From Pseudomonadota bacterium (lineage in GTDB: Bacteria; Bdellovibrionota_F; JAHFAK01; JBDREC01): 64,000 nt of DNA. The notes under the pieces were generated by a model. That model did no database searches and was not told the DNA's origin. It worked only from the letters and a program-made list of their open reading frames with translations. Positions 3,070-48,522 of this stretch are shown piece by piece. A program made the translations under genes and the position numbers. The stretch covers positions 15,405-79,404 of the forward strand of contig JBDREC010000103.1 in the NCBI GenBank assembly GCA_043820105.1, in the 5' to 3' direction. Each line of letters begins with the position of its first letter. The first letter of the stretch is position 1.

Positions 3070-3212
3070 TTGCTGGTGATGAAAATGTTATATTGGTAAG
3101 CTCGCAATTTTTTAATATCAATTAATAATCTAATAAAAATTTTTATGTATTCTCTTAACTCTTAATCTTTAATCTTTAATTTTAAATTTTGAATTTTGAA
3201 TTTTGAATTAAT

Positions 3213-14712: not shown

Positions 14713-15603
14713 ATGGAAAAAATTAAGAGGAAAACAAGGTCGCATATTGGGACATTTATTGTAATGTTTGTGTTATCTTTGTCTGCACATCTATTTGCTT
14801 TTTATTTTCTGGCAAAAAGATATCCTGACAGTCTTGATAAGATTGAGATTCCTAAGATTAAATCAGTAAAGGGATATTTAATTTCGCAAGATGAGCTTTT
14901 AATTAAGGAAGTTTTAAAAATTAAGCAGCGAACAAAGCTTGCTGCTCCTAAATATACTCCACCCCCACCAAAACAAGTTGTTCCAAAAAACGTAGTTAAG
15001 CTTCCACCAAAGGAAGTTGAAAAGCCTAAGCCTAAAAAGACGAAGAGGCAAATTGAAAAGGACAAAGCTTTAGAAAATATTAAGAAGAAAATTGAAAAGA
15101 AGATTATTACCGAGAAAAAATTACCTATAAAAACTGATCCAACAGAAACACGTGAGGCTCCAAAGGCTGAGAATTTTCCTGTTCCAGAAGGGTGGAAGGA
15201 GACGGAGACAGCTAAGCTTAAGATTCCACTTGGTAGCCAAACCGGAAATGAAGGTGGCAAAGAATTAAATGAAGATATGATTAATTATGAAATCGCCAAG
15301 TATGGGCTTTTACTTAAAGATAGCATTATAGGCAATTTTATCTTAAGTAATAAACGAGCTCTTAGAGAAAATCCTGATATTGAAATACATGTAAGTGTAA
15401 AGACAGATTCAAATGGAAGATTAATTTTTATGGAACTTGTAAAAAGCTCTGGAGTTGATTCCTTAGATGGACAATGTCTAAGCGCTATAAAAAAGACTGA
15501 ACCATTTCCCAGACCCCCTCTTATTTTAAAAGGAAGATCTAGCTTCACTTTTAAATTTATTTTTCCTGGCAAAGATTTACTAAAACTTATTAATGAGGAA
15601 TAG
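14713..15603 (+). CDS. tolA: TolA/TonB-family protein (N-terminal TM anchor, Pro/Lys-rich spacer, TonB-C-like domain)
   Basis: Membrane anchor, PPPPKQVVPKNVVKLPPKEVEKPKPKK spacer, C-terminal domain; position between tolR and tolB. Confidence 0.6.
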   Translation: MEKIKRKTRSHIGTFIVMFVLSLSAHLFAFYFLAKRYPDSLDKIEIPKIKSVKGYLISQDELLIKEVLKIKQRTKLAAPKYTPPPPKQVVPKNVVKLPPKEVEKPKPKKTKRQIEKDKALENIKKKIEKKIITEKKLPIKTDPTETREAPKAENFPVPEGWKETETAKLKIPLGSQTGNEGGKELNEDMINYEIAKYGLLLKDSIIGNFILSNKRALRENPDIEIHVSVKTDSNGRLIFMELVKSSGVDSLDGQCLSAIKKTEPFPRPPLILKGRSSFTFKFIFPGKDLLKLINEE

Positions 15604-43527: not shown

Positions 43528-43751
43528 ATAAAACTATCTTAAAAATTAATAAAAGTTTATTTATTTATGTGACTATTACTATAAAATATCTTTAAGGAAG
43601 TAAATAGAATAATTATATAAACATAAAATATTATTAAAATAAGGCCTGCGGCTACAATTTTTATCAATATAATCAATTCCAATAGAATTTAAAATTTAGA
43701 ATTAATTGCCGGATAAAATAAATCATACGCTTGTTTTGTGTCTAGTTCTAG

Positions 43752-44557
43752 TTAGATTCTGCCTAAAAAGTGGGCAAAATAAATTGTAAAAAACTTCAGG
43801 ATTTTAAATGTCTTTATTTAAAAAACAATTTCATTATAAGTTAGATTATATTTTCCGCAATAATATTTATAGCAAAAAAGGCTGGAATATTACCTGTTTC
43901 AGCCCTCAATATCCACAAGCTAAACCAAGACGCTTTATATTAAAAGAAATCGCAGTAAAATAAAGCTGCAATCGAAAATTTAATTTCCCACGATATCTAC
44001 ATCTGCAAAAACCGTATCCTCTTTTCAATGCTGATATCGTTCCCTCAATCGCATTTCTATTTTTCATCTCTTCTTTATACTCATCTGTCTTCATCAACTT
44101 TCTTGCTTCATCATGATCGACTACTCTCTGTCGCCAGACTGATAACAATTGATAACTAAAACCTGCATATTCCAGGTCAAGCTCTAATGCAATTTTCCAG
44201 TCTAATCTAAATATCAGATTTTGAATCGTTTGCCTGTCAGGAAGCTTTTCCAGAAACTGTAATATTGTTACACACATTAATAACCTCGGTGACACTGGTG
44301 GTCTTCCACCTTCTTTATACATCTGTTCGAAATCAGTATCTAATATTTTGGGAAATATAAATTCATGACATACCTTCACATGATCTCTGATTTCTGGAAA
44401 CACATTTAACATGATACCCGCCTTGAATAATGATTGTTGATTGTACTTTGATAAGTCCTTTGGCATCTATATTATATAAGCATTATCTGCACTTTGTAAA
44501 GATCTTGAGCTTAATTATTTGCTTAATATTTTAGCCCACTTTTTAGGCAGAATCTAA
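43752..44557. mobile_element. Internally deleted IS5/IS1182-like element (approx 806 bp) with perfect 24-bp terminal inverted repeats
   Basis: TTAGATTCTGCCTAAAAAGTGGGC at 43752-43775 is the exact reverse complement of 44534-44557; encloses a transposase ORF lacking the catalytic core. Confidence 0.75.
43906..44466 (-). pseudogene. Truncated transposase: IS5/IS1182-like N-terminal domain fused to C-terminal tail, DDE core missing
   Basis: N-terminal GRPPVSPRLLMCVTILQFL ... (DUF772-like) joined to C-terminal AIEGTISALKRGYGFCRCRYRG ... NIKRL; only 186 aa. Confidence 0.6.
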
Positions 44558-44712
44558 TTAAATTTTAAACCTATATCTTTGTAAATTGTTATTAAATTTT
44601 TAGTTTTGCTCTGACCCTAAAATTCCCAAAATTCCAACCATAAAATTCTGACCAAAATTTAAAAATTATTCTAAAATTATTGGCAATTGTAGAATGTCAA
44701 ATCCTAATCATA

Positions 44713-45000
44713 TTAAACTTTAGCTGCGCCAATGACACAGCTCAAAAGATATTGAACGCCATTGTTAAGGTTACCTGAAATGCAATAACTCATTTCGTCT
44801 GTTTCATTACCGCTAGTGCAACTGGGAACGACCATCCAGTATGAAGGTCCGGAACCCACACCGCAATCAGCACCTGAGGCGCTTTCTCCTGATTGGCATG
44901 ATTTGCCCCGCGTACTTGGCGTGGTAGCACCTGAGCCAGTCGAACAGTACAGTCTTTTTAAGTTGAGTAGAGTGTGTAATATTGGAGGAGAATACTTCAT
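44713..45000 (-). CDS. Small Cys/Gly/Ser-rich protein with conserved MKY...P.L...L..L.YC.TGSGA N-terminus (paralogue 1)
   Basis: ATG at 44998-45000; paralogue of 63233-63577 with the same N-terminal pattern and Cys roughly every 12-15 residues. Confidence 0.5.
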   Translation of the reverse strand: MKYSPPILHTLLNLKRLYCSTGSGATTPSTRGKSCQSGESASGADCGVGSGPSYWMVVPSCTSGNETDEMSYCISGNLNNGVQYLLSCVIGAAKV

Positions 45001-45301
45001 AATTACCACCTTTATAACTGAATAACGCTGAGAAGATACGCAACAGTTAGTAGCTTTTCATACTTACTTCTATTAATCTTTAACCTGATAGGTTACCTAT
45101 TTTAGTTATCACCTCGTGTGTGGGTTCTAATGCATGTGACCGAACAAACACTTAGGAAATAGAATTAAACTATGCAAAACCAAAAATATTGTCAATGTGG
45201 AATATTGTCAATTATATTTTCTTCACTAACTGAGCAGGTAGTAGTTATGGGACTGACATGCGTATTAATAATCAAGATTATGCATTAGAAAAAAATTCAA
45301 A

Positions 45302-45320
45302 GGGGTCAGGCCTTGACAAT
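45302..45320 (+). repeat. REP-like element copy (GGGGTCAGGCCTTGACA core) upstream of RAYT gene
   Basis: Same core at 45397-45420 (direct) and 46567-46588 (inverted). Confidence 0.5.
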
Positions 45321-45396
45321 AGACAACAAATCAATAATTTTACTGAAAAATATAGCTAACTTTTGAAAATACATGAAATTATCAATATTAGAAATA

Positions 45397-45420
45397 GGGG
45401 GGGGGCAGGCCTTGACATTC
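45397..45420 (+). repeat. REP-like element copy (GGGGGCAGGCCTTGACATTC) upstream of RAYT gene
   Basis: Core CAGGCCTTGACA shared with 45302-45320 and the inverted copy at 46567-46588. Confidence 0.5.
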
Positions 45421-45589
45421 GGCAGCAGGTTCCCTTTTATACAAAGTGTTTTTTTCCTTTAATTCTTTTTCTTTCTCCATTTTTAAGACAAATCTATAAA
45501 GACTTTGAGCTACTGAAGCATTATTAATTGAACTCTGTTTGAATATTAAGCTCCATATATTTAGGAACTAATCAATTTAGGGGTAATTT

Positions 45590-46582
45590 ATGCCTAGACC
45601 TAAAAGAATTGAATATGAAGGTGCTTGGTATCACGTCATGAATAGAGGTGCTAGCAAGAAAAACATTTTTCATTCACATGATGACAGGAACTTTTTTTTA
45701 AAAATGCTAGCGCATGTCAGTGATCAATGGAATTTTCAGACACATGCCTATTGTTTAATGACAAATCATTATCATTTGCTTGTGCATACACCAAATCTTG
45801 GCTTGTCAGAAAGTATGCGACATCTTTCTTCAATTTATACAATGAGATATAATAAGAAATATAAAAGGGATGGAGCATTGTTTAGAGGTAGATTCAAATC
45901 AATATTGTTAGATAGGGATGATTGTGCATCAGCAATATTAAGATACATTCACCAAAATCCCGTAAAGGCAGGTTTATGTAAAAATGTAGAATCATACAAG
46001 TGGTCTAGTCACAGAGCATATTTAAATGAAAAAAATAAACCGTCATTTCTATATACAGATGAGATATTGAAAGATTTTGCAAAGATTAGTTCTAAGGCAA
46101 GGCGAAAATTGCATGAGTTTGTGACTGGAAGAGAATCTAAAGATTTTATTAACTCTATAGAAGGGCCAAGACCTGTATCTGTAATGGGATCAGAGGGTTT
46201 TAGAGATTGGATAAAAGATAATTATTTATATAAAGTAAACAAAGATAAGTTAATTTCAACAGCAAGAAGTAATAAGCGCCCTGAAATTATACCAAAGCAA
46301 ATGTTATCATATGTTAGCTCTGAATTCAGTGTCAGTAAAAAAAGCATTATGGAAAATAAGTCTGGATCCATTGCAAATATACCAAGACTGACATATTTAT
46401 ATTTATTGCATAAAATTGCAGGTTTTACACATAATGAAATCGCTGAGATAAGCAAATCAGGAAACAAAGCTTCAGTAGCTCAAAACATTTATCGTTTTTC
46501 AAGGAGATTGGAAGAGGATGAATGTTTGGGCGAAAGGATTAAAGGTATGAAGGGGAATTTGTTGTCGAATGTCAAGGCCTGA
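45590..46582 (+). CDS. REP-associated tyrosine transposase (IS200-like HuH Y1 transposase) with C-terminal HTH-like extension
   Basis: YHVMNRG N-terminus, HuH motif HYHLLVH, catalytic Tyr context RYIHQNPVKAGL; flanked by inverted REP-like repeats. Confidence 0.7.
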   Translation: MPRPKRIEYEGAWYHVMNRGASKKNIFHSHDDRNFFLKMLAHVSDQWNFQTHAYCLMTNHYHLLVHTPNLGLSESMRHLSSIYTMRYNKKYKRDGALFRGRFKSILLDRDDCASAILRYIHQNPVKAGLCKNVESYKWSSHRAYLNEKNKPSFLYTDEILKDFAKISSKARRKLHEFVTGRESKDFINSIEGPRPVSVMGSEGFRDWIKDNYLYKVNKDKLISTARSNKRPEIIPKQMLSYVSSEFSVSKKSIMENKSGSIANIPRLTYLYLLHKIAGFTHNEIAEISKSGNKASVAQNIYRFSRRLEEDECLGERIKGMKGNLLSNVKA

Positions 46583-46588
46583 CCCCTC
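46567..46588 (-). repeat. REP-like element copy in inverted orientation immediately downstream of RAYT gene
   Basis: GAATGTCAAGGCCTGACCCCTC is the reverse complement of the upstream REP core; overlaps the RAYT stop region. Confidence 0.5.
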
Positions 46589-46591
46589 GTC

Positions 46592-46933
46592 TTAGTTCTT
46601 TCTCCATTTTTGATACTTTTCTTTCATGATTTTGCTTAAACCTGCTTTTTTTTCATTTACCCAGCTTGCTTCACCAATAAAATATTTGCATTCTTCATGC
46701 AATCGTTCCTTGACCGCCTCCCAGGCATCCATGAATGATTCAATCAGCTCCTGGTATTTTTTCTGTCTTTCTTTTGGAGTGCAGCCCAGACCCTCATAAA
46801 TCGGAGATGGGGTAATTAAAGGATCTTCTTTCCCTTCAGCATAATAAGCATAGGATGAAAACTTGTTCCAAAACTGGTTCCAGGGCCCAGTCATAGTTAT
46901 GGAATCTAAGAGTAACATGAAAATAGCAATCAT
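46592..46933 (-). CDS. Hypothetical protein
   Basis: ORF only; no recognised motif. Confidence 0.3.
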   Translation of the reverse strand: MIAIFMLLLDSITMTGPWNQFWNKFSSYAYYAEGKEDPLITPSPIYEGLGCTPKERQKKYQELIESFMDAWEAVKERLHEECKYFIGEASWVNEKKAGLSKIMKEKYQKWRKN

Positions 46934-47268
46934 CCTGCAAAACAGCAGATCTTGGAACAGAAGGTATAAATTGGCTTTATAAAAGTTAAGATGAAATTTT
47001 TATATACAAAAATTATGCAAAAAAAGTAGGGTTGAATGAAATTAAGTGCTTGGAATGAAAATATAGATCAAATATCGAAAAACTTTCCAAAATCAAAGCT
47101 TGGATTTCGGAATCTGAAAAGATTTGCACCTCCGTATTTATGGTTTTTTGTAATTTAAGAACATAAAATTAGGAAAAATAAGGCCTCCAGTCAATATATT
47201 AAGAGATCTTGTGATTTGGGAGTGGTATGTAAAGGACGTTTAAAAATATACTTTATTTATGACTTATT

Positions 47269-48522
47269 TTAATTATTTCCAATTCCATATAGTAGAAAAG
47301 ATTGGAAATGATATGCATCTATTTTTTCTTTATTATTATTAAAAAAACGTAATCCTATATCTGCAATAGGTCCTGTTTTATCATTATTAAATTCATAAAT
47401 GACCTCACCTAAGTTTGTATCAAATTCTTTTACTTCCAGTTCTATTGGCACTTCTTCATCATCGTACGGGTACAATACAACTTGAACATATTTCACATCT
47501 GGAATTCCAACTAAAGCTTGATATTCTGACATAAATTTTCTTGCTTTGCTATTGTCCTCTGATGCTAGGTACTCTTTGCTCAGTAATGCAGATATTATTA
47601 ACTGATAATTATCATCATTTTTGGTACCAGTAATTATTGGTTCATAAAAGAAAACATCATCCTTACTGATTGCATTTAAATTATTTGTACGAGAATGATA
47701 TGCCTTTATTGGTACAGGTGGATCTTGGTAAAGCTCATATGAAGCAATACCTTTACTTAAAGTCATATCAGGAGAATCTATAAAAAAATATGGGTCAAAA
47801 TATCTTTTGAAAGTATATACTGGCAAATTATTATAATCAAATATAAGAGTTTCTTCAAAAAGTTTATCTATTGGAAAATAGTACTCAATGAGAAAAATAT
47901 TATCATAATCTTTCTTAAAATATTTATAAAAAATGGGGTGTTCAAATTGAATTATTTCTCCAATTTTAAATAAGAATCCCTTTGTAATTTCTATTCTTGC
48001 AGAACCCCCTGTTTTAGGTATTTCATTATTTTCAAAAATCTCATCATATCTTACTTTGATTTTCCCATTTTCAATTGTAAAGTTCCCTGTAACTTCATAT
48101 CTATATTCAAAGAAATAGTAATGTCTTACATATACATTAACCTCTGATTCCATTTTTTCGAAATCAAATTTTATATAAACTTGCATATCATATTCTGGAC
48201 GATCTTTATATTGATCGTGAAAATCATAAATGGTCTCACCTTTATGCTTAATGTTTGCTAATTGATAGAGAACACTATTGCGCTTATAAAGTTTCTTTAG
48301 ATCTTCAATCTTTTCAATATCAGTTTTTACTATTGGCTTTGGAGGATCAGGAATCGGTGGTTTTGGTAGATCTAGAACTGGAGGAGTCGGAGGGATAGGT
48401 GCTGGTTCGTGAAGAATAACAGTAGGTTTAGGTTTAGATGTGGGCTTAGAAGTGTTTCCGTTACATCCGATTAATAAAGAAATTGTAATAAATATAGGGA
48501 TAAAAAGTTTGATGACTTTCAA
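47269..48522 (-). CDS. Hypothetical lipoprotein with Pro-rich linker
   Basis: Lipobox (LLIGCNG); PTPPVLDLPKPPIPDPPKP linker. Confidence 0.5.
   Translation of the reverse strand: MKVIKLFIPIFITISLLIGCNGNTSKPTSKPKPTVILHEPAPIPPTPPVLDLPKPPIPDPPKPIVKTDIEKIEDLKKLYKRNSVLYQLANIKHKGETIYDFHDQYKDRPEYDMQVYIKFDFEKMESEVNVYVRHYYFFEYRYEVTGNFTIENGKIKVRYDEIFENNEIPKTGGSARIEITKGFLFKIGEIIQFEHPIFYKYFKKDYDNIFLIEYYFPIDKLFEETLIFDYNNLPVYTFKRYFDPYFFIDSPDMTLSKGIASYELYQDPPVPIKAYHSRTNNLNAISKDDVFFYEPIITGTKNDDNYQLIISALLSKEYLASEDNSKARKFMSEYQALVGIPDVKYVQVVLYPYDDEEVPIELEVKEFDTNLGEVIYEFNNDKTGPIADIGLRFFNNNKEKIDAYHFQSFLLYGIGNN

Follow-up and report, generated by a model that had tools for sequence, protein, structure and literature searches.

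A gene for an HUH-type tyrosine (Y1) transposase that is bracketed by inverted copies of a short repeat raises the question of whether those copies are repetitive extragenic palindromes (REPs), as expected at the gene for a REP-associated tyrosine transposase (RAYT), or the ends of a mobile unit to which the gene itself belongs. We addressed this question for one such locus in a 64-kb stretch of DNA (hereafter the window; positions 15,405 to 79,404 of contig JBDREC010000103.1, assembly GCA_043820105.1) from a low-GC (31%) metagenome-assembled genome (MAG) assigned to the Pseudomonadota. A first-pass annotation of the window had read the locus as a RAYT gene flanked by REP-like copies. Our analyses point to a different answer, to which we give a probability of about 0.8: that the 1,287 bp at window positions 45301–46587 are a TIRtron, a transposon-like unit of ~1.0–1.3 kb in which one TIRYT gene lies between terminal inverted repeats (TIRs) that start 5'-GGGGTCAGG. 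These names were given to RAYT-like genes between TIRs (TIRYTs) and to the units that they form (TIRtrons) by Di Nocera, De Gregorio and Rocco (2013, BMC Genomics 14:522; PMC3733652), and TIRYTs have since been equated with TnpAY1 subclass 2.1 (Quentin et al., 2018, BMC Genomics 19:475; PMC6006769). The element therefore belongs to an already described class, as a new member of subclass 2.1.2 with a rearranged left end.

Repeats Flanking the TIRYT Gene

Three matches to GGGGTCAGGCCTTGACA are present in the window and every one of them is at the TIRYT gene, at 45302–45318 (forward strand, exact), 45401–45417 (forward strand, one mismatch, with a G run that begins just ahead of the copy at 45397) and 46570–46586 (reverse strand, exact). 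The number expected from 100 shuffled sequences was 0.03, and none of the shuffles reached three matches. The two direct copies upstream of the gene and the inverted copy at its stop codon that the first-pass annotation had described are thus real and above chance, at or within a few bases of where it had placed them, and its observation that the core was not seen elsewhere also holds, as there are no further copies in the 64 kb when up to three mismatches are tolerated. The repeats are, however, longer than it had described. Positions 45301–45331 and 46557–46587 form a 31-nt inverted repeat that is complementary at 29 of 31 positions (94%), and there is a second, more diverged inverted pair in two parts, one of 42 nt (45401–45442 and 46545–46586, 83%) and one of 36 nt (45490–45525 and 46463–46498, 81%).

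The outer left TIR, which we refer to as L1 (45301–45331, forward strand, AGGGGTCAGGCCTTGACAATAGACAACAAAT), is a solo copy that pairs with the right end better than the other left copy does. The right TIR (46557–46587, reverse strand) covers the last eight codons (..NLLSNVKA) and the stop codon of the intact TIRYT gene (45590–46582, forward strand, 330 codons), with the invariant TCA of the repeat serving as the TGA stop on the coding strand, and its boundary is 5 nt beyond the stop codon.

The first-pass annotation had called the copies REP-like and proposed folding as a check. Single copies had minimum free energies of only -1.7 to -2.2 kcal/mol (z = -0.8 to +0.6), values that were equaled or bettered by 35–148 of 200 shuffles, and the head of the repeat is GGGG, with no GTAG or CGTC. 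Since single copies have neither a meaningful hairpin nor a GTAG head they are not REPs, and the lack of copies elsewhere in the 64 kb was a further ground on which we rejected that identity. What GGGGTCAG does match is GGGGWSAS, a motif common to many TIRYT TIRs, some of which overlap the 3' end of the gene (PMC3733652). We conclude that the flanking copies are the 31-nt TIRs of a TIRtron. In the inner part of the TIR, the subgroup to which the window element belongs has two NNGACA heptads. The palindrome GTCAGG/CCTTGAC was considered as a general recognition feature and rejected, as it is subgroup-specific and not conserved across the family.

Conservation of the Element Ends in Other Genomes

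When one genome per species was searched for exact copies of the window 19-mer GGGGKCAGGCCTTGACAWT, 39 loci were obtained, compared with ~17 expected by chance on a rough estimate, in hosts that include Verrucomicrobiota, Desulfobacterota, Aminicenantes, Actinomycetota, Clostridia, Nitrospirota, Elusimicrobiota, Gemmatimonadota and members of the candidate phyla radiation, among others. Nearly all of these loci extend identically, as TTGACATTTGACA or TTGACATTGGACA, and because the extension beyond the 19-mer is shared we consider the loci to be homologous, not chance matches. Seven of them are directly at a TIRYT gene. The complete MAG chromosomes with the exact 19-mer (CP070660, CP070769, and CP070758) have just one or two copies each.

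In the three close relatives with DNA available, whose proteins have 44–48% identity to that of the window (loci L040–L042), the left TIR, GGGGTCAGGACTGGACATAGGACAA, begins 47–53 nt ahead of the ATG, and the stop codon (...LLSYVQS and stop) falls within the right TIR; the canonical length of the TIR in relatives is 25–31 nt. In L041, the 46%-identical relative, a second full TIR copy is present past the right TIR (3073–3190), together with a tandem array of ~six units of the TIR tip (GGGGTCAGAAAA / GGGGTCAGCAGAAAA) that looks like repeated copying of the extreme end.

The survey was widened by 80 metagenome loci, and 81 gene-bearing loci were searched in an unbiased manner for their best upstream/downstream inverted repeat. 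About 65 of the 81 have an inverted pair starting (A)GGGGTCA. The elements are 0.9–1.1 kb in length, their left arm is usually 44–58 nt before the ATG, and their right arm ends 2–10 nt after the stop codon. A stricter filter left 55 loci, from many phyla, for the determination of position frequencies in the TIR. The ends of these elements are GGGGTCARGTCT, with the consensus G-GGGTCA-R-G-T-C-T, in which GGGTCA is invariant, R-G-T-C-T are conserved at 64–96%, and the positions beyond are lineage-specific. The non-coding left end is as conserved as the coding right end. The proteins of the family end in VKA, VKT or QT because the invariant TCA, read as its complement, supplies the TGA stop codon.

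No target-site duplication was evident, as the flanks of 56 elements showed no direct repeat above that of re-paired controls. Such an absence is what HUH/Y1 chemistry predicts, whereas DDE transposases would be expected to leave a duplication. Three independent assembly contigs (L064, L123, and L124) start and finish exactly at TIRs, and contigs equal to the element are the signature of a multi-copy unit that is bounded by the TIR tips. Each end of L064 (1–49 and 1079–1125) is a perfect 45-nt palindrome, GGGGTCAAGTATACCGTTGACCCGGTCAACGGTATACTTGACCCC, that is, a head-to-head TIR dimer at both termini.

At 19 of 59 loci there are additional TIR copies in the same orientation at an end, so the presence of two left copies, as in the window, is a recurrent trait of the family, and the TIRs of TIRtrons have been reported to occur sometimes as dimers or clusters (PMC3733652). 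In L109 (664–2009) five copies of the left TIR core are present in the same orientation within 1.4 kb upstream of the TIRYT gene. In addition, several Desulfobacterales MAGs have gene-less doublets of ~90–100 nt that consist of two inverted copies of exactly the window TIR (L007, 3415–3506; L020, 4632–4728; L021, 7861–7949; also L002, L004, and L026). The doublets have folding energies of -30 to -40 kcal/mol and resemble miniature inverted-repeat transposable elements (MITEs) or REP doublets forming hairpins (REPINs).

The TIRYT Protein

The product of the open reading frame (ORF) at 45590–46582 is identical to P0122 (MFH1729767.1). Its layout is an HUH-Y1 nuclease (~residues 1–145), a helical linker, and a helix-turn-helix (HTH) domain similar to DnaA domain IV (~residues 226–325), and its catalytic motifs are H60-Y-H62 and Y119-IHQ-N123-P124 (Y-x3-NP). 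Pfam identified Y1_Tnp (E = 3.7e-13) and, weakly when searched with the single sequence, Bac_DnaA_C (E = 1.2e-3). A total of 2,420 homologs were found in the protein collection, most of them of 320–330 aa and sharing both Pfam domains. In an alignment of 37 sequences H62, Y119, and N123 are invariant, H60 and P124 are conserved in at least 90%, and the window protein has the family residue in 25 of the 25 invariant columns. The profile of the family matched DnaA domain IV structures over positions 226–321 (E = 2.8e-12) and TnpAREP weakly.

The AlphaFold (AF2) model of the protein has a mean predicted local distance difference test (pLDDT) score of 85.5, and its closest fold is TnpAREP (4er8, E = 1.1e-6), followed by the IS200, ISDra2, and IS608 transposases. 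The modeled C-terminal domain resembles the DNA-binding domain of DnaA with template modeling (TM) scores of 0.80–0.88 and root-mean-square deviations (rmsd) of 1.7–2.7 Å (3pvp, TM 0.87, rmsd 1.7 Å; 1j1v, TM 0.80). The TIRYT domain differs from DnaA domain IV in that it is fused to a nuclease and has NKASV at the position of the DHTTV recognition motif of DnaA, and the DnaA-box consensus, TTATCCACA, is not contained in the TIR. Its sequence and model show an intact two-domain protein in which a TnpAREP-like HUH/Y1 nuclease is joined to a DnaA-domain-IV-like HTH. This is consistent with the description of subgroup 2.1.2 as having a Bac_DnaA_C-like C-terminus, the HTH types listed for the subclass being Bac_DnaA_C, HTH_23, and HTH_28-related (PMC6006769).

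The similarity to the NCBIfam model REP_Tyr_transpos (NF047646; 79.5 bits, E = 2e-22) falls in the N-terminal half of the protein and is marginally under the curated cut-off of 80. The label of REP-associated tyrosine transposase given in the first-pass annotation is half right: the protein is an HUH Y1 enzyme from the RAYT/TnpAREP side, but the copies that flank its gene are not REPs. The comparison with characterized RAYT/REP systems that had been suggested divides in the same way, as the catalytic domain is TnpAREP-like and the repeats fit the GGGGWSAS TIRs of TIRYTs and TIRtrons (PMC3733652; PMC6006769).

Rearrangement of the Left Side

Besides the window protein the source MAG encodes the paralogs P0001 (92% identical, on an 11.9-kb contig) and P0002 (67%, partial), which amounts to at least three paralogs plus a P0002-type remnant. 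Its genes bear locus tags of the form ABIA04_, and its proteins include MFH1729767.1, MFH1728435.1, MFH1727136.1, and MFH1728684.1. The remnant is upstream of the TIRYT gene, at 45401–45531 on the reverse strand. A tblastn search with P0002 aligned its residues 249–273 with 45525–45451 (reverse strand) at 21 of 25 identical positions (E = 7e-8), and past a frameshift the remnant continues as LCIKGNLLPNVKA at 45446–45408. It is an inverted 3' end of ~131 nt that has lost its stop codon, and its TIR, GGGGGCAGGCCTTGACATTCGGCAG, is at 45401–45425. Inverted repeats described above cover this same stretch. The second upstream copy, L2, which the first-pass annotation had listed as REP-like, is therefore no independent repeat unit but the tail of an inverted, decayed paralog of a second TIRYT lineage.

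L1, on the other hand, has the canonical TIR length, and no similarity to coding sequence extends past the repeat. The 69 nt between L1 and L2 were considered as a decayed 5' stub of a gene and this was rejected, since the alignment score of 19 was matched by 710 of 1000 shuffles. The distance to the ATG is 289 nt for L1 and 189 nt for L2, compared with 44–58 nt in most relatives, and at ~50 nt from the ATG, where the left TIR would canonically lie, the window copy has none. Its left side is thus rearranged, with the decayed tail of a paralog (L2) and a solo TIR (L1) in place of the canonical TIR.

Neighboring Remnants

Immediately outside the element, at 46598–46967 on the reverse strand, is a pseudogene of a second, shorter family of RAYT-like proteins, represented in the source MAG by P0123 (238 aa; Y1_Tnp, E = 3e-4; REP_Tyr_transpos, 54.6 bits). 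By tblastn, residues 139–228 of P0123 match 46598–46867 (reverse strand) at 84 of 90 positions (93%, E = 1e-55), and its N-terminus (~residues 1–32) is matched from 46967 downward. The catalytic HUH/Y core of the pseudogene has been deleted and its last 10 codons have been lost, and it ends 8–10 nt from the right end of the TIRtron. The pseudogene is bracketed by a weak 28-nt inverted repeat (46629–46656 and 47015–47042, 75%) that might be its own TIR; the intact P0123 is on a different contig of the source MAG. Both this remnant and the P0002-type remnant became clear only with the paralog proteins as queries, as a family hidden Markov model searched against the six-frame translation returned them at non-significant E-values only.

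Upstream of the TIRtron, at 43749–44560, is an internally deleted IS1182-family element of ~812 bp with 31-nt TIRs (94% complementary, core AGATTCTGCCTAAAAAGTGGGC). In its 186-aa fusion ORF just the N-terminal and C-terminal portions of the transposase remain, and the match to NCBIfam transpos_IS1182 reaches 101 bits, where the cut-off is 270. The locus is therefore a landing pad that has received several Y1 elements and an IS1182-family element, all of which then decayed. The intergenic space in which it lies is bordered by a gene for a KamA-family aminomutase and a gene of unknown function (ORF 47269–48522). Rfam and tRNA scans of the neighborhood produced no matches. Between 44700 and 45000 there is a patch of ~300 nt with 45–50% GC, in which a 98-aa Cys/Gly/Ser-rich ORF (44713–45009, reverse strand) has no Pfam match. 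Possible degenerate fragments resembling the right TIR, at 44683–44710 and 44600–44620 (TTGTAGAATGTCAAATCCTAATC, 16/19 to the right TIR, and TGCTCTGACCCTAAAA), were statistically no different from chance.

The 16-mer Direct Repeat

The first-pass annotation had also described a direct repeat of ~20 nt on both sides of the gene. It is present, as an exact 16-mer, TTCTTTCTCCATTTTT, at 45469–45484 and 46596–46611 (both forward strand), with 19 of 21 positions identical across the 21-nt motif that had been described. The window has these two exact copies and a total of five copies with up to two mismatches, compared with 0.61 expected. The minus strand of the left copy encodes K-M-E-K-E of the P0002-type remnant (P0002 has VLKMEKEKELKE), while that of the right copy encodes (Q)K-W-R-K of the P0123-type pseudogene (P0123 has KYQKWRKRFKE). 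As the two copies are in unrelated gene remnants, in different reading frames and encoding different peptides, with the left one falling within the P0002-type remnant, we rejected the 16-mer as a target duplication or as a boundary of the element. Moreover, the left copy lies 168 nt inward of the left end, and the copies do not abut both TIR tips. A model in which the 16-mer marks a recombination junction was not compatible with the sequence after the right copy. The 16-mer may have arisen by chance, from lysine/glutamate-rich coding sequence in AT-rich DNA, or it may be a micro-homology that took part in a rearrangement, and it is outside the mechanism of the TIRtron.

Alternative Interpretations

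Of the other explanations of the locus, the one that survives best is that it is immobile and decaying, with both upstream copies being leftover 3' tails, the true left end of the gene lost, and no working transposon end remaining. L2 is demonstrably the tail of a pseudogene, no TIR is found at the canonical distance from the ATG, all of the neighbors are wrecks of transposons, and a scan of the left region for sigma-70-type promoters found nine sites compared with 7.6 expected, which is no excess over shuffles. Despite these observations we consider decay of the whole locus unlikely, based on the fact that the ORF is intact and has kept all invariant residues of the family, that L1 and the right TIR are far better preserved than L2, that L1 has exactly the canonical length and no attached coding remnant, and that a 92%-identical paralog elsewhere in the MAG implies a recent duplication or transposition.

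A second explanation, which we regard as quite improbable, is that the locus is a genuine RAYT/REP system (REPtron), with a domesticated, single-copy RAYT that is flanked by REPs and disperses and maintains them in high copy throughout the genome. The N-terminal domain is RAYT-like in both its REP_Tyr_transpos match and its closest fold, and the element shares with TnpAREP (PDB 4ER8; Nunvar, 2010; Bertels and Rainey, 2011; Ton-Hoang, 2012; Messing, 2012) the HuH and Y-x3-NP motifs, a gene bracketed by inverted cognate repeats, and, in some genomes, gene-less inverted doublets of the repeat whose long hairpins are REPIN-like. However, the repeats of the window are not GTAG-tagged palindromic hairpins (~-2.1 kcal/mol for a single copy, z about -0.7, equaled by 35–50 of 200 shuffles), they have no extra copies in the 64 kb, and the three complete MAG chromosomes with the exact 19-mer have only one or two. 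Their terminal sequence is common to many phyla and shows no per-species co-evolution, the TIRYT protein carries an additional HTH domain predicted to be of the dsDNA-binding type, and its score against the RAYT model is just below the cut-off. In place of the expected single gene the source MAG has several copies and a remnant. As seen from contigs equal to the element, it is the whole gene-plus-TIR unit that acts as the repeat. In addition, REPs have not been found around genes of subclass 2.1 (PMC6006769).

The tests that were run have already contradicted the remaining explanation, that of an ordinary IS200/IS605 insertion sequence whose TnpA acts on single-strand subterminal hairpins and with which the element shares its Y1_Tnp domain, its next-best folds, HUH/Y1 chemistry and insertion without target-site duplication, because the protein falls outside this group, whose recovery the first-pass annotation had named as evidence against a RAYT (transpos_IS200, NF033573; 17.2 bits against a cut-off of 55), has 330 aa including an extra HTH domain compared with ~130–150 aa and no HTH for IS200/IS605 TnpA, and carries the Y-x3-NP of the class 2 signature, which is distinct from that of class 1 (PMC6006769), and because the ends are inverted repeats without hairpins, which IS200/IS605 elements lack in favor of subterminal hairpins on one strand, and there is no tnpB gene, which is often present in IS200/IS605.

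Proposed Mechanism and Implications

Interpreted as a TIRtron, the window element has these features of the described class: the protein is of the RAYT-like HUH/Y1 type, ~325 aa long, and ends in an HTH resembling Bac_DnaA_C; the flanking TIRs contain GGGGWSAS, and the right one reaches into the 3' end of the gene; additional TIR copies form dimers or clusters; and there are no REPs. It differs in that an inverted tail of a second lineage and a distal solo TIR are found where the proximal TIR should be, and in the presence of several paralogs in one low-GC MAG, as the usual description of class 2 genes is that they have few copies of low mutual identity.

We envisage a mechanism in which the C-terminal HTH would bind the lineage-specific inner part of the duplex TIR, a segment that probably matches the HTH, and so position the HUH domain over the invariant outer core. 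Y119 would then nick at the outer core and form a 5'-phosphotyrosine link, and strand transfer would take the unit out of its site and insert it at a new one, as in Y1 "peel and paste," leaving no duplication. As an alternative, single-stranded TIRs may pair with each other as a panhandle or as a doublet hairpin in the manner of REPINs.

Several points weigh against the TIRtron interpretation of the window copy and the mechanism proposed for it. To our knowledge there are no reports of DNA binding, cleavage or movement by a TIRYT, and each step of the mechanism is extrapolated from TnpAREP/IS200 enzymes and DnaA domain IV. Lacking the canonical proximal left TIR, the window copy may be immobile, and L1 itself could be debris of another copy and not a functional left end. 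The conservation of the outer core at the right end is partly a constraint of coding, as it contains the last codons and the stop. What is known of the distribution of the TIR in the source MAG comes from the 64-kb window only. Finally, Y1 genes of class 2 have been reported as low-copy in most cases and as possibly domesticated (PMC6006769).

For annotation, the finding means that the label "REP-associated tyrosine transposase" on proteins of ~325 aa with a DnaA_C-like tail is no evidence for REPs. Subclass 2.1 was found in ~15% of surveyed strains (PMC6006769). TIRYTs are among the largest Y1 groups, yet none of their members is known to have been tested biochemically. The locus and its comparison with relatives supply concrete substrates for a first such test of the family. 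By-products of the comparison that are useful in its design are the stop codon embedded in the universal GGGGTCARGTCT core, the lack of a duplicated target, contigs that coincide with the element, paralogs at 92 and 67% identity, and the nested tail. A broader proposal, which we offer tentatively and consider possible but not probable, is that TIRtrons are a widespread, currently active, and horizontally spreading family of insertion sequences with a transposition chemistry of their own, in which an HUH/Y1 enzyme guided by a DnaA-type HTH acts on double-stranded inverted termini with a near-universal 12-nt core (GGGGTCARGTCT), leaves no target duplication, and uses TIRs as preferred landing sites. 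If this is true, such a preference would explain the TIR dimers, the clusters and the nested remnant, and TIRtrons would be a mechanistic intermediate between the hairpin-guided IS200/REP systems and classical TIR transposons.

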